From Escherichia coli (lineage in GTDB: Bacteria; Pseudomonadota; Gammaproteobacteria; Enterobacterales; Enterobacteriaceae), in NCBI RefSeq assembly GCF_013122565.1, contig NZ_CP053258.1: a stretch of DNA of 64,000 nucleotides, one strand, 5' to 3'. The notes under the pieces are model-generated. The model had not been told where the DNA came from. It made no database searches and worked only from the letters and a program-made list of their open reading frames with translations. Every line of letters starts with the position of its first letter. The stretch's first letter is position 1. This document shows, one piece after another, positions 3,335 through 43,146 of the stretch. The position numbers were made by a program, and so were the translations under genes.

Positions 3335-6011
3335 CGAACCCTTACGTCCCGACCCCGACCGTCTGCTGGAACAAACTGCCGCGCCGCATCGGGGGAAGCT
3401 GAAAGTTTTCTTCGGTGCCTGTGCAGGCGTCGGGAAGACCTGGGCGATGCTGGCAGAAGCCCAGCGACTGCGGGCGCAAGGGCTGGATATTGTGGTTGGC
3501 GTGGTAGAAACCCACGGGCGAAAAGATACCGCCGCCATGCTGGAAGGGCTGGCTGTTCTGCCGTTAAAACGCCAGGCGTACCGTGGGCGGCATATCAGCG
3601 AGTTTGATCTCGATGCCGCCCTCGCCCGCCGCCCGGCGCTGATCTTAATGGACGAACTGGCGCACAGTAATGCGCCAGGTTCTCGTCATCCTAAACGCTG
3701 GCAGGATATCGAAGAACTGCTGGAAGCTGGCATTGATGTTTTCACAACCGTCAACGTTCAGCATCTGGAAAGTCTGAATGATGTGGTCAGCGGCGTCACC
3801 GGAATTCAGGTACGGGAAACCGTGCCCGATCCTTTTTTCGATGCCGCCGACGACGTGGTTCTGGTGGACTTGCCCCCGGACGATCTGCGCCAGCGGCTGA
3901 AAGAAGGCAAAGTCTATATTGCCGGGCAGGCGGAGCGCGCCATTGAACATTTTTTCCGCAAAGGCAATCTGATCGCCCTGCGCGAACTGGCACTGCGCCG
4001 TACTGCTGATCGCGTTGATGAGCAAATGCGCGCCTGGCGGGGGCATCCTGGCGAAGAGAAAGTGTGGCACACGCGCGACGCGATCCTTTTATGCATCGGC
4101 CATAACACCGGCAGCGAAAAACTGGTCCGCGCAGCGGCGCGGCTGGCGTCACGGCTGGGTAGCGTCTGGCACGCGGTGTATGTTGAAACCCCTGCCCTGC
4201 ATCGCTTACCGGAGAAAAAACGTCGGGCAATTCTCAGCGCCTTACGTCTGGCGCAGGAGCTGGGCGCGGAGACGGCAACACTTTCTGATCCAGCGGAAGA
4301 GAAAGCGGTAGTGCGTTATGCCCGTGAACATAATCTCGGCAAGATTATTCTCGGTCGCCCAGCCTCGCGCCGCTGGTGGCGTCGGGAAACGTTTGCTGAC
4401 CGACTGGCGCGCATCGCTCCCGATCTCGATCAGGTGCTGGTCGCGCTTGATGAACCACCCGTCCGCACGATTAACAACGCGCCGGATAGCCGCTCTTTTA
4501 AAGACAAGTGGCGGGTACAGATTCAGGGATGCGTGGTTGCCGCCGCGTTATGCGCCGTTATCACCTTAATTGCTATGCAGTGGCTGATGGCGTTTGATGC
4601 CGCCAACCTGGTGATGCTGTATCTGCTTGGCGTGGTGGTGGTCGCGCTATTTTATGGACGCTGGCCTTCGGTGGTTGCTACCGTCATTAATGTGGTGAGT
4701 TTCGATCTCTTTTTTATCGCCCCACGCGGCACGCTCGCCGTCTCTGATGTGCAATATCTGCTGACCTTCGCGGTGATGTTAACCGTCGGGCTGGTGATCG
4801 GGAACCTTACTGCGGGTGTGCGTTATCAGGCGCGGGTAGCCCGTTACCGCGAGCAACGCACACGGCACTTATATGAAATGTCGAAAGCTCTGGCGGTGGG
4901 CCGCAGTTCGCAGGACATCGCCGCCACCAGCGAACAATTTATTGCCTCCACGTTTCATGCCCGCAGTCAGGTGTTGTTGCCCGATGACAACGGTAAATTG
5001 CAGCCGTTAACACATCCGCAAGGAATGACGCCGTGGGACGATGCCATCGCGCAGTGGAGTTTTGATAAAGGCCTGCCTGCGGGTGCGGGCACCGACACGT
5101 TACCCGGCGTGCCGTACCAGATTTTGCCGTTAAAAAGCGGTGAGAAAACCTACGGGCTGGTGGTGGTGGAACCGGGGAATCTGCGTCAGTTGATGATCCC
5201 GGAACAGCAGCGCCTGCTGGAGACGTTTACGCTGTTAGTCGCCAATGCGCTTGAGCGGCTGACGCTGACCGCCAGCGAAGAACAGGCGCGGATGGCAAGC
5301 GAACGGGAACAGATCCGCAACGCCCTGCTGGCGGCGCTTTCGCATGATTTACGCACTCCGCTTACGGTGCTGTTCGGTCAGGCAGAAATCTTAACGCTCG
5401 ATCTGGCAAGCGAAGGATCGCCCCACGCCCGCCAGGCCAGCGAGATCCGTCAGCACGTGCTGAACACTACCCGACTGGTGAATAATCTACTGGATATGGC
5501 GCGAATTCAGTCCGGCGGCTTTAATTTGAAGAAAGAGTGGTTAACGCTGGAAGAAGTAGTCGGCAGCGCGCTGCAAATGCTGGAACCGGGTTTATCGTCG
5601 CCCATCAATCTTTCTCTGCCAGAACCGCTGACCTTAATCCACGTTGACGGGCCACTCTTTGAACGGGTGCTGATTAATCTGCTGGAGAACGCGGTGAAAT
5701 ACGCGGGTGCGCAGGCCGAAATTGGGATCGATGCCCACGTTGAGGGCGAAAATCTACAACTGGATGTCTGGGATAACGGCCCCGGTCTTCCGCCAGGCCA
5801 GGAGCAGACGATATTTGATAAGTTTGCTCGCGGGAATAAAGAGTCGGCAGTACCGGGGGTAGGGCTTGGGCTGGCAATTTGTCGGGCGATAGTGGATGTA
5901 CACGGGGGCACTATTACCGCGTTCAACCGACCGGAAGGTGGTGCCTGTTTTCGTGTTACACTTCCCCAGCAAACCGCTCCTGAACTTGAAGACTTTCATG
6001 AGGATATGTGA
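3327..6011 (+). CDS. kdpD: Sensor histidine kinase KdpD
   Basis: 894 aa from ATG 3327 ([16 protein letters not shown]...); N-terminal KdpD domain with P-loop GACAGVGKT, four TM helices, C-terminal HisKA/HATPase; overlaps kdpC end. Confidence 0.93.
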
Positions 6012-6685
6012 CAAACGTTCTGATTGTTGAAGATGAACAGGCTATTCGTCGCTTTCTGCGCACGGCGCTGGAGGGCGACGGTATGCGCGTCTTTGAGGCC
6101 GAAACGCTGCAACGCGGCTTGCTGGAAGCGGCAACCCGTAAGCCAGATTTGATTATTCTCGATCTCGGCCTGCCCGACGGTGATGGGATTGAGTTTATCC
6201 GCGACCTGCGCCAGTGGAGCGCGGTGCCGGTGATTGTGCTTTCCGCACGCAGCGAAGAGAGCGACAAAATCGCCGCGCTGGATGCCGGAGCGGATGATTA
6301 TCTGAGTAAGCCGTTTGGCATTGGCGAATTGCAGGCCCGTCTGCGCGTCGCATTACGCCGCCACTCTGCCACCACCGCGCCCGATCCGCTGGTGAAATTT
6401 TCCGATGTTACCGTCGATTTAGCCGCCCGCGTGATCCATCGCGGTGAGGAAGAGGTGCATCTCACCCCGATTGAGTTTCGCCTGCTGGCAGTGCTGCTCA
6501 ACAACGCCGGAAAAGTACTCACCCAGCGCCAGTTACTCAATCAGGTGTGGGGGCCAAACGCGGTCGAACACAGTCACTATTTGCGTATTTATATGGGACA
6601 TCTGCGACAAAAACTGGAACAGGATCCCACTCGCCCCCGCCATTTCATTACTGAAACCGGTATTGGGTATCGGTTTATGCTTTGA
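6008..6685 (+). CDS. kdpE: Response regulator KdpE (OmpR family)
   Basis: 225 aa, receiver domain plus winged-helix; GTG start overlapping kdpD stop (ATGTGA). Confidence 0.93.
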   Translation: MTNVLIVEDEQAIRRFLRTALEGDGMRVFEAETLQRGLLEAATRKPDLIILDLGLPDGDGIEFIRDLRQWSAVPVIVLSARSEESDKIAALDAGADDYLSKPFGIGELQARLRVALRRHSATTAPDPLVKFSDVTVDLAARVIHRGEEEVHLTPIEFRLLAVLLNNAGKVLTQRQLLNQVWGPNAVEHSHYLRIYMGHLRQKLEQDPTRPRHFITETGIGYRFML

Positions 6686-6808
6686 AAAAAGTGGCAATGT
6701 ATGGATAAAGTCATTTTTTATTCAAATATAAGGAACTTAATATTTAAAAAATGTTCCATACAATTCCTCATCATAAATGACACCGTAGCACACAAGGAGC
6801 AAGTAGCG

Positions 6809-8044: not shown

Positions 8045-8078
8045 GCCGGATGCGGCGTGAACGCCTTATCCGGCCTAC
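8045..8078. repeat. REP element (gccggatgcggcgtgaacgccttatccggcctac)
   Basis: Matches REP consensus; forms a BIME with the inverted copy at 8114-8142. Confidence 0.85.
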
Positions 8079-26936: not shown

Positions 26937-28191
<1,255 letters not shown>

Positions 28192-28192
28192 C

Positions 28193-28252
<60 letters not shown>

Positions 28253-29602: not shown

Positions 29603-31027
29603 ATGACCAAAAAACTCCATATTAAAACCTGGGGCTGTCAGATGAACGAGTACGATTCATCGAAGATGGCCGATCTGCTGGATGCCACCCACGGCTATCA
29701 ACTGACCGACGTGGCGGAAGAAGCGGATGTGCTGCTGCTGAACACCTGCTCAATCCGCGAGAAGGCTCAGGAAAAGGTCTTCCATCAGTTGGGTCGCTGG
29801 AAACTGTTAAAAGAGAAGAATCCAGACCTGATTATCGGCGTCGGTGGCTGCGTGGCATCGCAAGAAGGCGAGCACATTCGCCAGCGCGCCCACTATGTCG
29901 ATATTATTTTTGGGCCGCAAACGCTGCACCGTCTGCCGGAGATGATCAACTCCGTGCGCGGCGACCGCAGCCCGGTTGTAGATATCAGCTTCCCGGAAAT
30001 CGAGAAGTTTGACCGTCTACCGGAACCGCGCGCCGAAGGGCCGACCGCGTTTGTCTCCATCATGGAAGGCTGCAATAAATATTGCACCTACTGCGTGGTG
30101 CCTTACACCCGTGGTGAAGAGGTAAGCCGTCCGTCTGACGATATTCTGTTTGAGATTGCCCAGCTTGCGGCTCAGGGCGTGCGTGAAGTCAACCTGCTCG
30201 GTCAGAACGTGAATGCCTGGCGTGGTGAAAACTACGACGGCACCACCGGATCGTTTGCCGATCTGCTGCGTCTGGTTGCAGCGATCGACGGGATCGATCG
30301 TATTCGCTTTACCACCAGTCATCCGATCGAATTCACCGACGATATCATCGAAGTGTACCGCGACACGCCGGAGCTGGTGAGCTTCCTGCATCTGCCGGTA
30401 CAGAGCGGTTCCGATCGCATTCTGAACCTGATGGGCCGTACCCATACGGCGCTGGAGTACAAAGCGATCATCCGTAAACTGCGTGCGGCGCGTCCGGATA
30501 TTCAGATCAGTTCTGATTTCATTGTTGGCTTCCCTGGCGAAACCACCGAAGACTTCGAGAAAACGATGAAGCTGATTGCCGACGTCAATTTCGACATGAG
30601 CTACAGCTTTATCTTCTCTGCACGTCCGGGTACACCAGCCGCCGATATGGTTGATGATGTTCCGGAAGAAGAGAAGAAGCAGCGTCTGTATATTCTGCAA
30701 GAGCGCATTAATCAGCAAGCGATGGCGTGGAGCCGTCGGATGCTCGGCACCACCCAGCGTATTCTGGTAGAAGGGACTTCACGTAAGAGCATCATGGAGC
30801 TTTCCGGGCGTACGGAAAATAACCGCGTGGTCAACTTCGAAGGCACGCCGGATATGATCGGTAAATTCGTCGATGTAGAAATTACCGACGTCTACCCGAA
30901 CTCTCTGCGCGGTAAAGTGGTGCGAACTGAAGATGAAATGGGTCTGCGCGTGGCAGAAACACCAGAATCGGTGATTGCCCGTACTCGCAAAGAAAACGAC
31001 CTTGGTGTGGGTTATTATCAGCCGTAA
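29603..31027 (+). CDS. miaB: tRNA-i6A37 methylthiotransferase MiaB (radical SAM)
   Basis: 474 aa; N-terminal MTTase cysteines, radical-SAM CxxxCxxC (CNKYCTYC), TRAM domain. Confidence 0.95.
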
Positions 31028-31179
31028 TTCTCAGGCCCGCCGTTCCGGTGGGCCTTGTTTTTTCTCTCTTTATCCCCATCTTTATCGCAATGCTTGCGCC
31101 TTTTTCCTGTGGCGTGAATAATTTCCTTATAGGCCGGTGAATGTTCAGCTTCCGGCGGCATACAGATAAGAGGAACGGT

Positions 31180-32220
31180 TTGAACATAGACACTCGCGAA
31201 ATCACCCTGGAGCCAGCAGACAACGCGCGTCTGTTGAGCCTGTGCGGCCCGTTTGATGACAACATCAAGCAGCTCGAACGCCGTCTCGGCATCGAGATCA
31301 ATCGCCGCGATAACCACTTTAAACTGACCGGCCGTCCGATTTGCGTCACCGCTGCGGCAGACATTCTGCGTAGCCTGTATGTCGATACTGCCCCGATGCG
31401 CGGTCAGATTCAGGATATTGAACCGGAACAGATCCACCTTGCGATTAAAGAAGCGCGGGTACTGGAGCAAAGCGCGGAGAGCGTGCCGGAGTACGGCAAA
31501 GCGGTCAATATCAAAACTAAACGCGGCGTAATTAAGCCGCGCACGCCAAACCAGGCGCAGTACATCGCCAATATTCTCGACCATGACATTACCTTCGGCG
31601 TTGGCCCGGCGGGTACGGGTAAAACCTACCTGGCAGTGGCTGCAGCAGTTGATGCCCTGGAGCGTCAGGAAATTCGCCGTATTCTGCTGACTCGTCCGGC
31701 GGTCGAAGCCGGTGAGAAACTGGGGTTCCTGCCTGGCGATTTAAGCCAGAAAGTAGACCCGTATCTGCGCCCACTGTACGACGCGCTGTTTGAAATGCTG
31801 GGCTTTGAGAAAGTCGAGAAACTGATTGAGCGCAACGTTATTGAAGTCGCGCCGCTGGCCTATATGCGTGGTCGTACGCTGAATGACGCCTTTATCATTC
31901 TCGATGAGAGCCAGAACACCACCATCGAACAGATGAAGATGTTCCTGACCCGTATCGGTTTTAACTCAAAAGCGGTTATCACCGGCGACGTCACGCAGAT
32001 CGACCTGCCGCGTAATACCAAGTCAGGCTTGCGTCACGCCATCGAAGTGCTGGCCGATGTCGAAGAGATCAGCTTTAACTTCTTCCACAGCGAAGACGTG
32101 GTTCGTCACCCGGTGGTGGCGCGTATCGTTAACGCTTATGAAGCCTGGGAAGAAGCAGAACAAAAACGTAAAGCGGCGCTGGCAGCAGAACGCAAGCGCG
32201 AAGAACAGGAACAAAAATGA
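31180..32220 (+). CDS. ybeZ: PhoH-like ATPase YbeZ
   Basis: Walker A GPAGTGKT; probable TTG start at 31180 preceded by AAGAGG (346 aa); alternative ATG at 31141 gives 359 aa. Confidence 0.85.
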
Positions 32221-32684
32221 GTCAGGTGATCCTCGATTTACAACTGGCATGTGAAGATAATTCCGGGTTACCGGAAGAGAGCCAGTTTCAGAAATGGCTG
32301 AATGCGGTGATCCCGCAGTTTCAGGAAGAGTCGGAAGTGACGATTCGCGTGGTCGATACCGCCGAAAGCCACAGTCTGAATCTGACCTATCGCGGTAAGG
32401 ATAAGCCGACCAACGTGCTCTCCTTCCCGTTTGAAGTGCCGCCTGGCATGGAGATGTCGCTACTGGGCGATCTGGTTATCTGCCGTCAGGTGGTTGAGAA
32501 GGAAGCACAGGAGCAAGGCAAACCACTGGAGGCGCACTGGGCGCATATGGTGGTGCACGGCAGTCTGCATTTGTTAGGTTACGATCACATCGAAGATGAC
32601 GAAGCAGAAGAAATGGAAGCCCTCGAAACAGAGATTATGCTTGCTCTGGGCTATGAGGATCCGTACATTGCCGAGAAAGAATAA
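32217..32684 (+). CDS. ybeY: Endoribonuclease YbeY (16S rRNA maturation)
   Basis: 155 aa; metal-binding HxxxHxxGYDH motif; overlaps ybeZ stop. Confidence 0.93.
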
Positions 32685-32773
32685 TTTGCCAGGCATTTGA
32701 CTGGCAGACGTCCCCGCCGTTGGTGATTAACGACGGCGTTTTGATTAACTAACATGAGAACCCATACGACGCC

Positions 32774-33652
32774 ATGAGCGACGACAATTCACACAGTAGT
32801 GACACGATAAGCAACAAGAAGGGATTTTTCTCCCTGTTACTCAGCCAACTTTTCCACGGTGAACCGAAAAACCGTGACGAACTGCTGGCGCTGATCCGTG
32901 ATTCCGGGCAGAACGACCTTATCGACGAAGATACGCGCGATATGCTCGAAGGGGTGATGGACATCGCAGACCAACGCGTCCGCGACATCATGATCCCCCG
33001 CTCCCAGATGATTACCCTGAAACGCAACCAGACGCTGGACGAATGCCTTGATGTCATCATCGAGTCCGCCCACTCACGTTTCCCGGTGATTAGCGAAGAC
33101 AAAGATCACATTGAAGGGATTCTGATGGCGAAAGACTTGCTGCCGTTTATGCGCAGCGATGCTGAAGCCTTCAGCATGGACAAAGTGTTACGTCAGGCGG
33201 TTGTCGTTCCTGAAAGTAAGCGCGTAGACCGGATGCTGAAAGAGTTTCGCTCTCAGCGTTACCACATGGCGATCGTTATTGACGAATTCGGTGGGGTTTC
33301 CGGTCTGGTGACCATTGAAGACATCCTGGAACTGATTGTTGGTGAGATTGAAGACGAATATGACGAAGAAGATGATATCGACTTCCGTCAGCTGAGTCGT
33401 CATACCTGGACCGTGCGCGCACTGGCTTCCATTGAAGACTTCAACGAAGCGTTCGGCACCCACTTTAGCGATGAAGAAGTCGACACCATCGGTGGTCTGG
33501 TGATGCAGGCATTTGGGCATCTTCCGGCGCGTGGCGAAACCATCGACATCGACGGTTACCAGTTCAAAGTGGCGATGGCCGATAGTCGGCGTATTATTCA
33601 GGTTCATGTCAAAATCCCGGATGACTCACCCCAGCCGAAGCTGGATGAATAA
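32774..33652 (+). CDS. corC: Magnesium/cobalt efflux-associated protein CorC (CBS pair and CorC_HlyC domains)
   Basis: 292 aa, full-length. Confidence 0.92.
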
Positions 33653-33676
33653 AACCGAAACTGGATAGATAACTAC

Positions 33677-35215
33677 ATGGCTTTTGCCTCATTAATTGAA
33701 CGCCAGCGCATTCGCCTGCTGCTGGCGTTATTATTCGGTGCCTGCGGAACGCTGGCCTTCTCTCCTTACGATGTCTGGCCTGCGGCGATTATTTCGCTGA
33801 TGGGGCTTCAGGCGTTGACCTTTAACCGTCGTCCACTCCAGTCTGCCGCTATTGGCTTTTGCTGGGGATTTGGCCTCTTTGGCAGCGGTATTAACTGGGT
33901 CTATGTCAGCATCGCGACCTTTGGCGGAATGCCTGGCCCGGTTAACATCTTCCTGGTGGTGCTGCTGGCGGCGTATTTGTCGCTGTATACCGGACTGTTT
34001 GCTGGCGTGCTGTCGCGCCTGTGGCCGAAAACCACCTGGCTGCGCGTGGCGATTGCCGCCCCTGCTCTCTGGCAAGTGACCGAGTTTCTGCGCGGTTGGG
34101 TACTGACCGGCTTCCCGTGGTTACAGTTCGGCTATAGCCAGATTGATGGCCCGTTAAAAGGGCTGGCACCGATAATGGGCGTGGAAGCCATTAACTTCCT
34201 GCTGATGATGGTTAGTGGCCTGCTGGCACTGGCGTTGGTCAAACGCAACTGGCGTCCGCTGGTGGTGGCCGTCGTGCTGTTTGCCCTACCCTTCCCGCTG
34301 CGTTACATCCAATGGTTTACCCCGCAACCGGAGAAAACCATTCAGGTTTCGATGGTTCAGGGCGATATTCCGCAATCGCTGAAATGGGACGAAGGCCAGC
34401 TTCTTAATACGCTGAAGATTTACTACAACGCAACGGCACCGCTGATGGGCAAATCATCGTTGATTATCTGGCCGGAGTCGGCGATAACCGATCTGGAAAT
34501 TAATCAGCAACCGTTCCTCAAAGCACTGGACGGTGAGTTGCGCGAGAAAGGGAGCTCGCTGGTAACCGGGATTGTTGACGCGCGTCTCAATAAGCAGAAC
34601 CGCTACGATACCTACAACACCATCATCACGCTGGGTAAAGGTGCACCGTACAGCTACGAATCAGCCGATCGCTATAACAAAAACCATCTGGTGCCGTTTG
34701 GCGAGTTTGTCCCGCTCGAGTCGATTCTGCGTCCGTTAGCACCGTTCTTTGATCTGCCGATGTCGTCGTTCAGCCGTGGGCCATATATCCAGCCGCCGCT
34801 GTCGGCAAATGGTATTGAGCTTACTGCGGCTATTTGCTATGAGATCATTCTTGGCGAGCAAGTGCGTGATAACTTCCGCCCGGATACCGACTACCTGCTG
34901 ACTATCTCCAATGATGCATGGTTTGGTAAGTCTATTGGTCCATGGCAGCACTTCCAGATGGCGCGTATGCGTGCGTTGGAGCTGGCGCGCCCATTGCTGC
35001 GTAGTACCAACAACGGCATTACGGCGGTGATTGGCCCGCAGGGTGAGATTCAGGCGATGATCCCGCAGTTCACCCGCGAGGTGCTAACCACTAATGTGAC
35101 ACCGACCACCGGACTCACACCGTATGCACGTACCGGCAACTGGCCGCTGTGGGTGCTGACGGTGCTATTTGGTTTTGCCGCTGTGTTGATGAGTCTGCGT
35201 CAACGACGTAAATAA
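33677..35215 (+). CDS. lnt: Apolipoprotein N-acyltransferase
   Basis: 512 aa; N-terminal TM helices and C-terminal nitrilase-like domain. Confidence 0.95.
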
Positions 35216-35611
35216 TCCCTTCTTATCGTGCCGGAATACATCCCGTATTTCGGCACGCTCACCGGATGCGGCATCAGTGCATTATCCGGATAACAATATT
35301 CTCCTATCCAACTTTGGCACATCTATTGCTTTGTTATACAAGGCAAAGCTTGAACCAGCATCAGTACAACCCGGTTGCACCACAGCAATCCACCGGTAGC
35401 ACCAAAAGAGTGCATTTTAAGAATTTTGCTTCGGAATGGTGCGGCGCACCTCGCAAAAACAAACAATAAAACATCAATATCTTTACATTTAGCCAAACTA
35501 AATGTTACCTAACAGGCACAACACTGCACAATAAAGTTGCAGACGATAACAACACAAACACTCACAACGGGTATCCATGCGTTCTTAACGCAGAAGATAA
35601 AGGAGTTGGAT

Positions 35612-36520
35612 ATGCAATTACGTAAACCTGCCACAGCAATCCTGGCCCTGGCGCTTTCCGCAGGACTGGCACAGGCAGATGACGCCGCCCCGGTAGCGGG
35701 CAGTACGCTGGACAAAATCGCCAAAAACGGCGTGATTGTCGTCGGTCACCGTGAATCTTCAGTACCTTTCTCTTATTACGACAATCAGCAAAAAGTGGTG
35801 GGTTACTCGCAGGATTACTCCAACGCCATTGTTGAAGCAGTGAAAAAGAAACTCAACAAACCGGACTTGCAGGTAAAACTGATTCCGATTACCTCACAAA
35901 ACCGTATTCCGCTGCTGCAAAACGGCACTTTTGATTTTGAATGTGGTTCTACCACCAACAACGTCGAACGCCAAAAACAGGCGGCTTTCTCTGACACTAT
36001 TTTCGTGGTCGGTACGCGCCTGTTGACCAAAAAGGGTGGTGATATCAAAGATTTTGCCGATCTGAAAGGCAAAGCCGTAGTCGTTACTTCCGGCACTACC
36101 TCTGAAGTTTTGCTCAACAAACTGAATGAAGAGCAAAAAATGAATATGCGCATCATCAGCGCCAAAGATCACGGAGACTCTTTCCGTACCCTGGAAAGTG
36201 GTCGTGCTGTTGCCTTTATGATGGATGACGCTCTGCTGGCTGGTGAACGTGCGAAAGCGAAGAAACCAGACAACTGGGATATCGTCGGCAAGCCGCAGTC
36301 TCAGGAAGCCTACGGTTGTATGTTGCGTAAAGACGATCCGCAGTTCAAAAAGCTGATGGATGACACCATCGCGCAGGTGCAGACCTCCGGTGAAGCGGAA
36401 AAATGGTTTGATAAATGGTTCAAAAATCCAATTCCGCCGAAAAACCTGAACATGAATTTCGAACTGTCAGACGAAATGAAAGCACTGTTCAAAGAACCGA
36501 ATGACAAGGCACTGAACTAA
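35612..36520 (+). CDS. gltI: Glutamate/aspartate ABC transporter periplasmic binding protein
   Basis: 302 aa from ATG 35612 with AGGAG RBS; signal peptide; the track ORF is extended upstream to 35537. Confidence 0.93.
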   Translation: MQLRKPATAILALALSAGLAQADDAAPVAGSTLDKIAKNGVIVVGHRESSVPFSYYDNQQKVVGYSQDYSNAIVEAVKKKLNKPDLQVKLIPITSQNRIPLLQNGTFDFECGSTTNNVERQKQAAFSDTIFVVGTRLLTKKGGDIKDFADLKGKAVVVTSGTTSEVLLNKLNEEQKMNMRIISAKDHGDSFRTLESGRAVAFMMDDALLAGERAKAKKPDNWDIVGKPQSQEAYGCMLRKDDPQFKKLMDDTIAQVQTSGEAEKWFDKWFKNPIPPKNLNMNFELSDEMKALFKEPNDKALN

Positions 36521-36678
36521 TTACAAGAACCAGGGGCGGAAATTCCAGCCCTCTCAATTGTTACGTAGCACGGACAGACTATACGCCTGATGGTCGTTCC
36601 CCATCGGGCCTGAAAACCGCAATACGCTGGGTAACAATCTTCGAGGGTAGCAGTTAACGCTGCTACCCTCTTTTTTCT
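36516..36678 (+). ncRNA. sroC: SroC sRNA, 3'-derived from the gltI-gltJ intercistronic region
   Basis: 169-bp gltI-gltJ spacer ending in an intrinsic terminator (36643-36678); boundaries placed from my recollection of the K-12 annotation, so approximate. Confidence 0.65.
36643..36678 (+). terminator. Intra-operon rho-independent terminator between gltI and gltJ
   Basis: 11-bp perfect stem gagggtagcag / ctgctaccctc followed by ttttttct. Confidence 0.88.
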
Positions 36679-36689
36679 GGAGTAGATTT

Positions 36690-37430
36690 ATGTCTATAGA
36701 CTGGAACTGGGGTATTTTTTTACAACAAGCCCCGTTCGGCAACACCACCTATCTTGGTTGGATCTGGAGTGGTTTTCAGGTGACGATCGCTTTGTCGATC
36801 TGCGCCTGGATTATCGCTTTCCTCGTCGGTTCATTTTTCGGCATTTTACGTACCGTTCCAAACCGTTTTCTCTCCGGTCTGGGTACGTTGTATGTCGAAC
36901 TGTTCCGCAACGTGCCGTTGATTGTGCAATTCTTTACCTGGTATCTGGTGATCCCGGAGCTGCTGCCGGAGAAAATCGGCATGTGGTTTAAGGCCGAGCT
37001 GGATCCCAATATTCAGTTTTTCCTTTCATCCATGCTCTGCCTTGGGCTGTTTACCGCCGCCCGTGTTTGCGAACAGGTACGCGCCGCTATTCAGTCGCTG
37101 CCGCGTGGGCAGAAGAATGCCGCGCTGGCGATGGGTCTGACGCTACCGCAGGCTTACCGCTACGTACTGCTGCCTAATGCTTATCGCGTTATCGTCCCGC
37201 CGATGACCTCAGAGATGATGAACCTGGTGAAAAACTCCGCCATCGCCTCGACCATCGGTCTGGTAGATATGGCAGCGCAGGCAGGTAAATTGCTCGACTA
37301 CTCGGCTCACGCTTGGGAGTCGTTTACCGCCATTACGCTGGCGTATGTATTGATTAACGCTTTTATCATGCTGGTGATGACGCTGGTTGAACGTAAAGTT
37401 CGCCTGCCCGGCAACATGGGGGGCAAATAA
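36690..37430 (+). CDS. gltJ: Glutamate/aspartate ABC transporter permease
   Basis: 246 aa polytopic membrane protein with ABC permease EAA-like loop. Confidence 0.93.
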
Positions 37431-38104
37431 TGTACGAGTTTGACTGGAGTTCCATTGTTCCTTCCCTGCCATATCTGCTCGACGGGCTGGTGATCACCCT
37501 GAAAATCACCGTCACGGCAGTCGTGATTGGTATTTTGTGGGGCACCATGCTGGCGGTGATGCGCTTGTCCAGCTTTGCGCCCGTAGCATGGTTTGCCAAA
37601 GCCTACGTTAACGTATTCCGCTCGATTCCTTTAGTTATGGTTTTGCTGTGGTTTTACCTGATCGTGCCGGGTTTTCTGCAAAACGTGCTGGGATTATCAC
37701 CAAAAAATGATATCCGTTTAATTTCGGCGATGGTGGCGTTTTCGATGTTTGAAGCGGCCTACTATTCAGAGATTATCCGTGCCGGTATTCAAAGTATTTC
37801 TCGTGGTCAATCGAGCGCCGCGCTGGCGTTGGGGATGACTCACTGGCAGTCGATGAAACTGATTATTCTGCCGCAGGCGTTCCGCGCGATGGTGCCGCTG
37901 CTGCTCACTCAGGGCATCGTACTGTTCCAGGATACCTCACTGGTGTATGTGTTATCTCTGGCCGATTTCTTCCGTACCGCCTCAACCATTGGTGAGCGTG
38001 ATGGTACGCAGGTTGAGATGATCCTGTTTGCCGGATTTGTTTATTTCGTTATTAGCCTTAGCGCGTCGTTGTTGGTCAGCTACTTGAAAAGAAGGACAGC
38101 ATAA
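37430..38104 (+). CDS. gltK: Glutamate/aspartate ABC transporter permease
   Basis: 224 aa; start overlaps gltJ stop. Confidence 0.93.
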
Positions 38105-38829
38105 TGATTACCCTGAAAAATGTTTCAAAATGGTATGGTCACTTTCAGGTGCTGACCGACTGCTCAACCGAAGTGAAAAAAGGCGAAGTGGTGGTGGTTT
38201 GTGGCCCGTCTGGTTCCGGCAAATCAACGCTGATTAAAACCGTCAACGGCCTCGAACCGGTGCAGCAAGGTGAAATCACCGTCGATGGTATCGTGGTTAA
38301 CGACAAGAAAACCGATCTGGCAAAGCTGCGTTCCCGCGTCGGGATGGTGTTCCAGCATTTTGAGTTGTTCCCCCATTTGTCGATTATTGAAAACCTGACT
38401 CTGGCGCAGGTTAAAGTGCTTAAACGCGATAAAGCACCCGCTCGTGAAAAAGCATTGAAATTGCTGGAGCGCGTGGGACTTTCCGCACATGCCAATAAAT
38501 TTCCGGCACAGCTTTCCGGCGGTCAGCAGCAGCGTGTGGCGATCGCTCGCGCATTATGTATGGATCCTATTGCCATGCTGTTCGACGAACCGACATCGGC
38601 GCTGGATCCGGAGATGATCAACGAAGTGCTGGACGTAATGGTCGAACTGGCGAATGAAGGAATGACCATGATGGTGGTGACCCACGAAATGGGCTTTGCC
38701 CGTAAAGTGGCGAATCGGGTGATCTTTATGGATGAGGGTAAAATTGTCGAAGACTCGCCGAAAGATGCGTTCTTCGATGATCCGAAATCGGACCGCGCAA
38801 AAGACTTCCTCGCGAAAATCCTGCATTAA
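38104..38829 (+). CDS. gltL: Glutamate/aspartate ABC transporter ATP-binding protein
   Basis: 241 aa; Walker [13 protein letters not shown] signature LSGGQQQR, Walker B. Confidence 0.95.
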
Positions 38830-38946
38830 TCATTCTGGCGCGCATACCCAAGTGCGCGCCATCTCACGCTTTATCGTTTCGCTCCTCGTATCTGTTATAT
38901 CCTGGCGTTACCCTTGTCGCAAAGAAGCACACAACAAGGAGCAACA

Positions 38947-39882
38947 ATGGCACTGCCAATTCTGTTAGATTGCGACCCAGGTCATGACGATGCTATCGCA
39001 ATAGTTCTCGCCCTCGCCTCACCAGAGCTTGATGTCAAAGCAATTACGTCTTCCGCCGGAAACCAGACACCAGAAAAAACCTTACGCAATGTTCTGCGTA
39101 TGCTGACCTTGCTTAATCGCACCGATATTCCGGTAGCCGGCGGCGCGGTAAAACCGTTAATGCGTGAGTTGATTATCGCGGACAATGTGCACGGCGAAAG
39201 CGGTCTGGATGGCCCGGCATTACCGGAACCGACGTTTGCACCGCAAAACTGTACGGCGGTGGAGCTGATGGCGAAAACGCTACGTGAAAGTGCGGAACCT
39301 GTCACAATTGTGTCTACCGGACCGCAAACTAACGTTGCCTTGCTGCTCAATAGCCTCCCGGAACTGCATAGCAAAATTGCCCGTATCGTGATTATGGGCG
39401 GCGCAATGGGGCTTGGTAACTGGACGCCTGCGGCTGAATTTAATATTTACGTTGACCCGGAAGCGGCAGAAATTGTCTTCCAGTCAGGGATCCCGGTGGT
39501 GATGGCCGGTCTGGATGTTACTCACAAAGCACAAATCCACGTTGAAGACACCGAGCGTTTCCGCGCGATTGGCAACCCTGTTTCAACCATTGTTGCCGAA
39601 CTGCTGGATTTCTTCCTCGAATATCATAAAGACGAAAAATGGGGTTTTGTCGGCGCACCGCTGCATGACCCATGCACCATCGCCTGGTTGTTGAAACCGG
39701 AGTTGTTTACCACTGTTGAGCGCTGGGTTGGCGTGGAAACACAGGGGAAATATACCCAGGGTATGACGGTTGTTGATTATTATTATCTGACTGGCAATAA
39801 ACCGAATGCCACCGTAATGGTCGATGTTGATCGTCAGGGCTTTGTTGATTTACTGGCTGATCGTCTGAAATTTTACGCTTAA
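38947..39882 (+). CDS. rihA: Pyrimidine-specific ribonucleoside hydrolase RihA
   Basis: 311 aa from ATG 38947 ([16 protein letters not shown]..., nucleoside hydrolase DxDxxxDD motif); the track ORF starts upstream at 38914. Confidence 0.92.
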
Positions 39883-39965
39883 CACACGTCATTGATTAAG
39901 ATCACCACGCGTTACCTGGGTGGTCTTAATCTGTTTATCTCTTTTTCTTTCAAGATATAAATGCA

Positions 39966-41636
39966 ATGGATAATGCAGAACTCGCCATTGGTATCGATCT
40001 CGGTACTACCAATAGTTTAATTGCCGTCTGGAAAGACGGTGCCGCGCAATTAATTCCAAATAAGTTCGGTGAATATTTAACACCATCCATAATTAGCATG
40101 GATGAAAATAATCATATTTTAGTCGGAAAACCGGCTGTATCACGGCGTACTTCGCATCCGGATAAAACGGCAGCGTTATTTAAACGTGCAATGGGCAGTA
40201 ATACCAACTGGCGGTTAGGCAGCGACACATTTAACGCGCCAGAACTGTCCTCTTTGGTATTACGCTCATTAAAAGAAGATGCCGAAGAATTTCTGCAACG
40301 TCCAATTAAAGATGTGGTGATCTCCGTTCCGGCTTATTTCAGCGATGAACAACGCAAGCATACCCGTTTAGCAGCGGAGTTAGCCGGGTTAAATGCGGTA
40401 CGCTTAATTAATGAACCCACAGCAGCTGCAATGGCGTATGGCCTGCATACCCAACAAAATACCCGTTCGCTGGTGTTTGATCTCGGTGGCGGCACGTTTG
40501 ACGTTACGGTGCTTGAGTACGCCACGCCGGTGATTGAAGTTCACGCCTCCGCTGGCGACAACTTTCTTGGTGGCGAAGATTTTACCCATATGCTGGTCGA
40601 TGACGTTTTAAAGCGCGCGGATGTCGCCAGGAACACGCTTAACGAGAGTGAACTGGCAGCCTTGTACGCCTGCGTAGAAGCGGCAAAATGTAGTAATCAA
40701 TCGCCAATGCACATTCGCTGGCAGTACCAGGATGAAACGCGGGAGTGCGAATTTTACGAGAACGAACTGGAAGATTTGTGGTTGCCGCTGCTCAATCGCT
40801 TGCGAGTGCCGATTGAACAGGCGTTGCGCGATGCGCGTCTGAAGCCGAGTCAAATCGACAGTCTGGTGCTGGTTGGCGGCGCGTCACAAATGCCGCTGGT
40901 GCAGCGAATCGCCGTGCGTCTGTTTGGCAAATTACCGTATCAAAGTTACGATCCGAGCACCATTGTCGCGCTGGGCGCAGCAATCCAGGCCGCCTGCCGC
41001 TTACGCAGTGAAGATATTGAAGAAGTGATCCTCACTGATATTTGCCCTTACTCGTTGGGTGTTGAAGTTAACCGTCAGGGCGTATCCGGCATTTTCTCGC
41101 CGATTATTGAACGAAACACCACAGTACCGGTGTCGCGTGTAGAAACGTACTCGACCATGCACCCGGAGCAGGATTCAATTACGGTTAACGTCTATCAGGG
41201 AGAAAACCACAAAGTTAAAAATAACATTCTGGTGGAATCCTTCGATGTGCCGTTGAAGAAAACCGGGGCTTATCAGTCGATTGATATTCGTTTTAGTTAT
41301 GATATCAACGGCTTGCTTGAAGTTGACGTACTTCTGGAAGACGGCAGCGTTAAGTCCAGAGTCATTAATCATAGCCCGGTAACATTGAGCGCGCAGCAGA
41401 TCGAAGAGAGTCGGACGCGGTTATCCGCATTGAAAATTTATCCGCGCGATATGCTCATCAATCGCACCTTTAAAGCCAAACTGGAAGAGTTGTGGGCGCG
41501 AGCGCTGGGTGACGAGCGAGAAGAGATTGGCCGGGTGATCACCGATTTTGATGCGGCGTTGCAGTCAAACGATATGGCCCGCGTCGATGAGGTCAGGCGG
41601 CGGGCGAGCGATTATTTAGCCATTGAGATCCCATAA
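39966..41636 (+). CDS. hscC: Hsp70-family chaperone HscC
   Basis: 556 aa; Hsp70 signatures IDLGTTNS and DLGGGTFD. Confidence 0.95.
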   Translation: MDNAELAIGIDLGTTNSLIAVWKDGAAQLIPNKFGEYLTPSIISMDENNHILVGKPAVSRRTSHPDKTAALFKRAMGSNTNWRLGSDTFNAPELSSLVLRSLKEDAEEFLQRPIKDVVISVPAYFSDEQRKHTRLAAELAGLNAVRLINEPTAAAMAYGLHTQQNTRSLVFDLGGGTFDVTVLEYATPVIEVHASAGDNFLGGEDFTHMLVDDVLKRADVARNTLNESELAALYACVEAAKCSNQSPMHIRWQYQDETRECEFYENELEDLWLPLLNRLRVPIEQALRDARLKPSQIDSLVLVGGASQMPLVQRIAVRLFGKLPYQSYDPSTIVALGAAIQAACRLRSEDIEEVILTDICPYSLGVEVNRQGVSGIFSPIIERNTTVPVSRVETYSTMHPEQDSITVNVYQGENHKVKNNILVESFDVPLKKTGAYQSIDIRFSYDINGLLEVDVLLEDGSVKSRVINHSPVTLSAQQIEESRTRLSALKIYPRDMLINRTFKAKLEELWARALGDEREEIGRVITDFDAALQSNDMARVDEVRRRASDYLAIEIP

Positions 41637-41643
41637 ACACGGC

Positions 41644-41673
41644 TGCCGGATGCGGCGTAAACGCTGCATCCGG
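41644..41673. repeat. REP-like palindrome between convergent hscC and djlC
   Basis: gccggatgcggcgtaaacgctgcatccggc. Confidence 0.7.
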
Positions 41674-41694
41674 CATCGGCGCCAAAACACATCG

Positions 41695-43146
41695 TCAACT
41701 AAACAACATCGCGATTTTGCCGAGAGCATAACCTATCACCAGCACCGTTAAACTGATTTTGATAATGCCGGTAATGCTCTGTGGTTTTTCATCCTCATCA
41801 TTTTTTTCTTCATGGTTTTCAGGTGTTGGCTCATCGACATCTTCATCCTCCGGCTCGAGTTTCACTTTCGTCAACAGCATCCGGGTGATGATGGCCTCTA
41901 ATGGATGAGCATCTCCACCTTCCAGCCTTGTATTAAGACGGGCCAGCATCTCTTGTTTCGGAAACGCTTCAAGTACTACCTGTTCCGCTACCCGATACAA
42001 ATCCAGTAACGGTGAATCTTGCTCTGTCTCGCTACCGACTCTCGATTTCCACCACGCCCATGCTTTGCGCTTGAAAAATAACGATTCAATAAACGATTGA
42101 CCTAACGGCGATAATTTTCCGCTATGTAAAATTTCCGCCCATAACAGCCGCGTCCGGGCGCTCTCACCAGGAACATATTTCAACGGTTTACCTTGCACAT
42201 CAACCATGCTCTGCGCTTCGATAACCATCACTAACAGCGCGAAATAATCCGGGCAATGTTGTGCGCTCCACTGCAACAACAAATTATCGGCTTGTGTAGA
42301 TGGGTAACTCTCCCGGTATGCGCAGAGATCGGCAAGCAGGCTTTCCCCCTCGCCGCAGTACAAACGTTGTGCACACTGGTAATACCGGGCATCTTCGCTT
42401 TCTGGTTCTTCCATTTGCCACTGTTGGGCAACAGGAATGAGTTCCGCCATACCTGTTTGCACCGAGCTGTACCAGCGCAACAGTTTGCGATGTAACTTTG
42501 CATCATCAGGAATGAACCACGGACCTTCCATCGCCAAAAACGCAGTGACATAGTCAGGATGGTAACGGCAGCAACGTTCCAGCGCGAAGTAATACTCAAC
42601 AGTCTGGTTCTGCAACGCAACAGGATATTCCAGAAGGCTAAGGAAATCGAAACAATCACCAGCCTGAATGGCCTCAAGAAAAGCCTCCCTTTCTTCCTCA
42701 TCCATTCCTTCGCTGTCATTAAACGAATGCCAGTTCAAACGCTCTGCCAGCAAAGAAGCACAATTTAATGAAAGATATCGCGCTTCTATAGCGATTGCAC
42801 ACAGCGGCCAGCGTAATTGATCGACATCCTCCATGTTCCAGGTATTTAATTGCTGAATAAATTTCTGCCAGGCGGAGGGCTGAAAACGATCACTTTCTGA
42901 ATCCAGTAATGCCCTGAATGCACATAGTATTTCATGTTCAGCGGCAGCATCTTTTTCTTCATCATCTGCTTCCTCGACAGGATTTACCGCCAATCGCAAG
43001 GCCTCTTCATAGGCCTGGCGTAATGCTTTAAACCCCTGCGGATCGGTTTCGGGATGACACAACGGTAAGCGAGCAAGATAAGCCTGGCGGATAATGTCTA
43101 TTTGCGTCGTGCTTTCAATTTCGAGGATTTGCCAACATGTTTTCAT
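41695..43146 (-). CDS. djlC: J-domain-like co-chaperone DjlC (YbeV), C-terminal membrane anchor
   Basis: 483 aa; acidic linker and C-terminal hydrophobic helix; paralogous along its length to the 44516-45943 ORF. Confidence 0.88.

Follow-up and report, generated by a model that had tools for sequence, protein, structure and literature searches.

An uninterrupted lnt-gltI spacer in an Escherichia coli genome, with an unoccupied target site at the position of IS5 in K-12

Gene layout of the lnt-gltI junction

The DNA analysed here, referred to below as the window, is a stretch of 64,000 nucleotides from E. coli contig NZ_CP053258.1 (assembly GCF_013122565.1), numbered from its first letter. Within it lnt, the final gene of a ybeZ-ybeY-corC-lnt run and collinear with K-12 b0657, is followed on the same strand by gltI. 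Since lnt ends at 35215 and gltI begins at 35612, the two genes are separated by 396 bp. This spacer has a G+C content of 43%, and the list of open reading frames contains none longer than 67 amino acids within it. The Lnt protein of the window terminates in ...SLRQRRK*. The following features were located at the junction:

33677-35215, + strand: lnt coding sequence, apolipoprotein N-acyltransferase, 512 amino acids (TIGR00546, E 5e-123)
35216-35611, no strand: lnt-gltI spacer, uninterrupted
35227-35257, + strand: hairpin with a perfect 13-bp stem just 3' of the lnt stop codon (by folding)
35262-35289, + strand: REP element CCGGATGCGGCATCAGTGCATTATCCGG (REP core pattern with 0 mismatches; second hairpin by folding)
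35314-35330, + strand: predicted sigma-54 promoter TTGGCACATCTATTGCT (-24 GG / -12 GC), directed towards gltI
35376-35382, + strand: NtrC-like site TGCACCA (pattern search)
35398-35414, + strand: NtrC-like site AGCACCAAAAGAGTGCA (pattern search)
35438-35450, + strand: NtrC-like palindrome GGTGCGGCGCACC (pattern search)
35509-35512, no strand: CTAA, unoccupied IS5 target, single copy, in the context gttacCTAAcaggcac (longer form aaatgttacCTAAcaggcac)
35548-35568, + strand: C/A-rich stretch AACAACACAAACACTCACAAC, -64 to -44 from the gltI ATG
35600-35605, + strand: Shine-Dalgarno sequence AAGGAG of gltI
35612-36520, + strand: gltI coding sequence with its ATG at 35612, periplasmic glutamate/aspartate-binding protein, 302 amino acids (NF008063, E 3e-201)
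36516-36678, + strand: sroC, a 3' UTR-derived sRNA acting as GcvB sponge (Rfam RF00369, 168 bits, E 2e-36; K-12 annotation)

In an Rfam scan of positions 33000-38000 sroC alone scored above threshold, naRNA4 and sbrA remaining below their gathering scores. SroC is processed from the gltI transcript (PMC4474525) and is therefore governed by the lnt-gltI spacer.

Comparison with E. coli K-12

A preliminary description, made from the letters of the window, had stated that K-12 has an IS5 copy between gltI and lnt and had proposed alignment to the K-12 reference as a check. The statement was accurate, and K-12 does not lack an insertion sequence at this place: in MG1655 (NC_000913.3) the order is gltI (686839-687747), IS5D (687851-689045, carrying insH3, b0656) and lnt (689343-690881). 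The alignment, once made, revealed IS5D with a flanking CTAA duplication in K-12 and an empty site in the window. The MG1655 spacer of 1,595 bp is thus made up of 396 bp, the 1,195 bp of IS5D and the 4 bp of the CTAA duplication. At the first K-12 junction gttacCTAA is followed by ggaaggtgcgaa (in longer form, aaatgttacCTAA followed by ggaaggtgcgaac and then IS5), and at the second the IS5 sequence ttcgcaccttcc is followed by CTAAcaggcac, so that CTAA stands on both sides of IS5D.

Local megablast of the window against K-12 positions 650001-740000 showed the two to be collinear at approximately 98% identity, with breakpoints at 35508-35512, and revealed three structural differences, namely IS5D, speFL-speF-potE and a 1.28-kb insertion. 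The K-12 IS5D interval (687851-689045) had no megablast match anywhere in the 64-kb window. Between lnt and gltI of the window there is neither a 1,195-bp element with GGAAGGTGCGAA... terminal repeats nor an insH transposase gene, and the 4-bp target that is duplicated in K-12 is not duplicated here. Because a single CTAA is found at 35509-35512 against two in K-12, this is the empty IS5 target site; it lies 99 bp 5' of the gltI ATG. The two strains are otherwise alike at this locus: they share the flanking genes, the 396 bp of spacer sequence (approximately 96% identity over positions 1-297), the hairpin, the REP element, the sigma-54 promoter, the NtrC-like sites and the ribosome-binding site. 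What sets K-12 (b0655-b0657) apart is the 1,195-bp IS5D, which together with its CTAA duplication stands 99 bp 5' of the gltI ATG. A catalogue of IS5 in BW25113 lists 11 copies, the one at gltI/lnt among them (PMC11677980). Both the presence of this IS5 in K-12 and its absence from strains such as this one are already known.

The two remaining structural differences had also been reported in the preliminary description, as a missing speF-potE and as an IS110-family element elsewhere. The 4.2-kb speFL-speF-potE block (K-12 716865-721054) indeed has no counterpart in the window. Window positions 6542-6686 (145 bp) match both the 3' end of kdpE (K-12 721199-721055) and the ybfI pseudogene (716864-716720); in K-12, then, the block stands between two copies of a 145-bp sequence that is single in the window. 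This difference is an indel flanked by a duplication and not strictly a mobile element. The 1.28-kb insertion is IS621, of the IS110 family (~26971-28247), whose open reading frame at 27162-28142 (+ strand) contains PF01548 and PF02371 and is named "IS110 family RNA-guided transposase" by NCBIfam. It separates the Gln/Met/Leu tRNA cluster from ubiF; K-12 has no IS621 there. The broader claim, that the mobile-element complement differs from that of K-12, is supported.

Among the 5,426 complete RefSeq E. coli genomes that made up our population survey, 2,245 contain an IS621-like sequence; a few share the exact insertion together with its flanks, at 99.5-99.6% identity. Positions 30000-42000 of the window found a best identity of 98.2% among complete RefSeq E. 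coli genomes, none reaching 99% or more, while the best match to the spacer alone (99.5%) was in a pig isolate. The source lineage, or a recombinant segment in it, seems to be poorly represented among finished genomes.

Structures downstream of lnt

The hairpin and REP-like sequence that had been noticed at 35230-35300 resolve into two hairpins, at 35227-35257 and 35262-35289, the second of which fits the REP core. Folded jointly they reach -33.1 kcal/mol (z = -5.5), a value matched by 0 of 200 shuffled sequences. REP elements are defined as extragenic, multicopy, imperfect palindromes of ~35 bp with the core CCGGATGCGGC...GC.TTATCCGG; this core pattern has four matches in the window against 0.00 expected, which places the element within that definition. 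Two of the copies, at 8046 and 23826, have the sequence CCGGATGCGGCGTGAACGCCTTATCCGG. The sub-threshold match to naRNA4, a REP-derived RNA (35230-35291, 24 bits), covers both structures.

No Rho-independent terminator was discovered in a scan of 35150-35680, where a stem is present and a T-run is absent. Because it has no U-tract, the hairpin at 35227-35257 is not a canonical intrinsic terminator, and it is probably a 3'-end stabiliser or a REP-like structure. Hairpin and REP together may serve in protection of the lnt transcript 3' end or in attenuation rather than in classical termination.

Promoter and leader of gltI

The pattern TGGCAC-N5-TTGCW has a sole match in the 64 kb, TTGGCACATCTATTGCT, with 0.08 expected, and in this sequence the G of the GC lies exactly 12 bases past the first G of the GG. 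The predicted start near 35340 would give a leader of ~270 nt. TTGGCACATCTATTGCT is identical to the K-12 sigma-54 ChIP-seq site OS04 (PMC4591121), which was assigned to insH3 in that strain, the next gene there being that of IS5. It differs by one mismatch from the Salmonella gltI promoter TGGCACGTCTATTGCTTT, which is bound by sigma-54 (PMC3844500), and is conserved in a four-species alignment. In addition, mutation of rpoN lowers the expression of ybeJ (gltI) in strains CFT073 and EDL933 (PMC9017345). From this identity and homology to other strains, TTGGCACATCTATTGCT is predicted to be active as a promoter in the source strain.

Another sigma-54-like sequence, cAGGCACaacacTGCAc (35514-35529), lies just past the IS5 target. 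It was rejected on its GG-to-GC spacing of 11 rather than 12, and further by its GG reading AG in ST131 and E. marmotae. A consensus scan of 35150-35680 returned no sigma-70 promoter on the + strand, so that the one known from the literature could not be placed in the window.

The K-12 NtrC ChIP-seq peak for gltIJKL is at 688381-688461 (PMC4066584). This interval converts to approximately 35319-35399 of the window, the ChIP resolution of ~80 bp making an exact placement impossible. Genomic SELEX has shown that both RpoN and NtrC bind the insH/lnt spacer (PMC8743547). Assignment of the individual sites between 35376 and 35450 to NtrC is our inference from the pattern search. Enhancer sites for NtrC usually lie ~100-150 bp upstream of the promoter; here the upstream DNA is occupied by the REP element, the hairpin and lnt, and the putative sites are all downstream, ~35-110 bp past the predicted start and inside the ~270-nt leader. 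This is unusual for an enhancer. The layout is nevertheless conserved in Salmonella and Citrobacter, and Klebsiella aerogenes possesses similar TGCACC/GGTGCA-type sequences at the corresponding position.

The gltI 5' UTR is published as containing a GcvB target site and a translational enhancer (PMC4474525). The C/A-rich stretch at 35548-35568 probably corresponds to these, its coordinates having been deduced from the sequence of the window.

Three states of the junction in E. coli

In the survey the spacer was matched in 5,423 of the 5,426 genomes, but a single match covered 80% or more of it in only 1,833. The K-12 IS5 junctions were found on the gltI side in 351 genomes and on the lnt side in 356. 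All of the sampled genomes with an IS5 junction were K-12 derivatives or had K-12-sized genomes; they include MG1655, BW25113, RV308, MC4100, EPI300, NEB Turbo, ER1709, an O16:H48 strain and transconjugants. The rest of the genomes match spacer positions 152-396 only. A 2.2-kb segment between lnt and gltI is present in 3,239 genomes (~60%), near full length in 3,233. The three classes (1,833 + 351 + 3,239) add up to 5,423, roughly all of the genomes, and the IS5 state is therefore a peculiarity of K-12. The short state seen in the window is that of about one third of E. coli, including O157:H7 genomes, which match the entire spacer at 98%, while the long state is the commonest. What the preliminary description had overlooked is that K-12 is exceptional in having IS5 here and that E. 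coli most often has a third state, with a rhomboid-family gene.

The lnt-side IS5D junctions slightly outnumber those on the gltI side, so a handful of K-12 derivatives have seemingly been rearranged at IS5D. Zinser et al. reportedly described, in 2003, IS5-mediated rearrangements affecting ybeJ-gltJKL.

In the long allele lnt and gltI are ~2.46 kb apart, as in ST131 and ATCC 8739, and are separated by a 1,878-bp gene in the opposite orientation that is annotated as "rhomboid family intramembrane serine protease". Its uncharacterised product of 625 amino acids possesses PF01694 at residues 60-201 and a C-terminal beta-propeller. By blastn between the window and ST131, homology at high identity extends to 35200, 15 nt short of the lnt stop codon, and is regained at 35367, so that 166 bp of the window stand against 2,227 bp in the long allele:

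35201-35366 of the window, no strand: segment specific to the short allele, comprising the last five lnt codons, the hairpin, the REP element and the sigma-54 promoter
4655-6532 of the ST131 record: rhomboid gene, in the segment that replaces window 35201-35366

Long alleles (ST131, ATCC 8739, B strains, O111:H8, APEC O1 and others) agree with the window in their flanking genes, in the distance of the sigma-54 promoter and in the gltI-proximal 245 bp, which are 93-97% identical. They differ in having another REP type, an lnt product ending in ARKR, and the 2,227-bp segment with its rhomboid gene. The long allele has its own sigma-54 promoter, TTGGCATGTAAGTTGCT (diverged form TGGCATGTAAGTTGCT), which starts 53 bp upstream of the shared block. 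Since the 53-bp distance is equal in the two alleles and the sequence is different, the promoter region is positionally homologous and strongly diverged.

Homologs of the rhomboid protein with at least 89% identity occur in E. coli and Shigella only; the next stands at 72%, followed by others at 49-58%. A K. aerogenes homolog (49% amino acid identity) occupies the same junction, in the order gltLKJI, rhomboid gene, lnt-corC-ybeY-phoH-miaB; the flanking DNA in that species is ~81-84% identical. For a further homolog with 49% identity (P0039) no encoding contig is on record. The gene is absent from the junction in Salmonella, a Citrobacter and two divergent Escherichia.

Origin of the short arrangement

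In Salmonella enterica and a Citrobacter sp. lnt lies directly beside gltI, with spacers of 354 and 362 bp, respectively. The same holds for an E. marmotae-like contig (its Lnt is named E. marmotae by NCBI), which has a 396-bp spacer and is 93.6% identical to the window, and for a GTDB Escherichia species representative (L062), which has the short allele and is 94.7% identical to the window. In the four-species alignment the window spacer aligns end to end with those of Salmonella, Citrobacter and the E. marmotae-like contig. The sigma-54 promoter, the NtrC-like sites, several leader blocks and the ribosome-binding site are conserved across these outgroups. The claim of a spacer of about 400 bp free of insertion sequences is thus upheld by its length of 396 bp, by the lack of any IS5 match and by this alignment. 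Lnt ends in QRRK in the window, E. marmotae and Salmonella; Citrobacter differs.

L062 was recovered by searching bacterial contigs with the degenerate sigma-54 pattern TTTGGCAYRTMWRTTGCTTT. Among the matches listed, mostly unrelated sigma-54 promoters and chance occurrences, it alone was useful, being an Escherichia with the short allele. Two other loci were set aside. L132, whose Lnt is 91% identical, was considered as a rhomboid-bearing outgroup and proved to be an E. coli assembly full of frameshifts, with 97.6% identity to the window; as E. coli it is uninformative on ancestry. The Shimwellia locus (L056) contains neither lnt nor gltI.

From these comparisons the short arrangement emerges as the orthologous, and probably the ancestral, state for Escherichia; it is no recent deletion. 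The converse, that the ancestor possessed the rhomboid gene and that ~2.2 kb were lost both here and in K-12, whether through this loss, a deeper one or exchange with a lineage of Klebsiella-type arrangement, would agree with the presence of the 2.2-kb segment in 3,239 of 5,426 genomes, with the homologous gene at the K. aerogenes junction (49% amino acid identity) and with the resemblance of the long-allele Lnt terminus ARKR to the SRKR of K. aerogenes. We nonetheless consider it improbable. The conserved blocks are base-for-base collinear with Salmonella, the Citrobacter sp. and the two Escherichia (93.6% and 94.7%), the QRRK terminus is shared with E. marmotae and Salmonella, and the sigma-54 promoter has one mismatch to that of Salmonella where the long allele has four; a recent loss from the long allele would have retained the long-allele promoter sequence.

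The absence of IS5 might itself be secondary or illusory. IS5 prefers YTAR targets, and the CTAA at 35509-35512, a proven IS5 target in K-12, fits this preference; another CTAA lies 8 bp upstream (35498-35501). An IS5 that once resided here and was later lost by precise excision is, however, very unlikely, given that the target CTAA is single and scarless, that 1,833 E. coli genomes have the identical empty sequence and the E. marmotae-like contig has it as ...CCTAACA..., that occupied sites are seen only among K-12 derivatives or K-12-sized genomes, and that the 64-kb window has zero IS5. Still harder to credit is an assembly artefact in which an IS copy was lost by collapse. IS copies are places where short-read assemblies generally break or collapse, but the outcome would then be a broken contig and not a perfect junction with one CTAA, an intact IS621 has been kept elsewhere in the window, and the structure is common to one third of finished E. 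coli genomes. We therefore propose, at a probability of roughly 0.9, that this spacer, adjoining the 3' end of lnt, is the regulatory region of the gltI-sroC-gltJKL operon in its native form and has never been interrupted.

Regulatory consequences and significance

With the spacer read as native and uninterrupted, transcripts of ybeZ-ybeY-corC-lnt would end in, or be stabilised by, the hairpin and REP element, and the NtrC-activated sigma-54 promoter at 35314-35330 would then fire towards gltI. The leader of ~270 nt would carry the NtrC-like sites, the ribosome-binding site and the C/A-rich stretch, presumably the target of GcvB. K-12 and its derivatives have a 1,195-bp IS5 that landed on this CTAA, between the sigma-54/NtrC module and gltI, and that uncouples the operon from nitrogen control. 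According to the published work of Miyakoshi et al., the nitrogen induction of gltI/SroC is blunted by IS5 in K-12 but is seen in O157 and O111, "devoid of IS5 insertion". The spacer being intact in the source strain, normal NtrC/sigma-54 control is predicted there, and a limited nitrogen supply should induce gltI, gltJKL and SroC, as it does in O157, O111 and Salmonella.

Close parallels are Salmonella Typhimurium and E. coli O157:H7 and O111, in which lnt adjoins gltI, the sigma-54 -24/-12 element occupies the same position, the NtrC-like sites and leader blocks are conserved, and there is no IS5 (PMC9731577). Salmonella differs from the window in that the hairpin is missing, the REP element is a mere remnant and the spacer measures 354 bp.

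More speculatively, the enhancer of the gltI sigma-54 promoter may naturally lie within the transcribed leader, and the junction may be a long-lived polymorphism with three states (empty, IS5 and a fast-evolving rhomboid/beta-propeller gene); we hold this as a tentative idea that is rather unlikely to be correct. If it were true, NtrC bound to the leader could activate the sigma-54 promoter and also obstruct another promoter, as a roadblock or a repressor, and the divergently transcribed rhomboid gene, by being present or absent, might change the geometry of the upstream DNA. Perhaps the three-state polymorphism and the downstream NtrC-like sites will be useful by-products for those working on NtrC/sigma-54 architecture or on rhomboid proteases.

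The observation from which this analysis started was correct and its interpretation is supported, the phenomenon having already been described in the literature. Absence of IS5D, presence of IS621 and absence of speF-potE together make a clean strain marker. K-12 is atypical at this locus, a point of little significance beyond bookkeeping; because it is atypical, the nitrogen regulation of gltIJKL/SroC measured in K-12 should not be carried over to wild E. coli such as the source strain.
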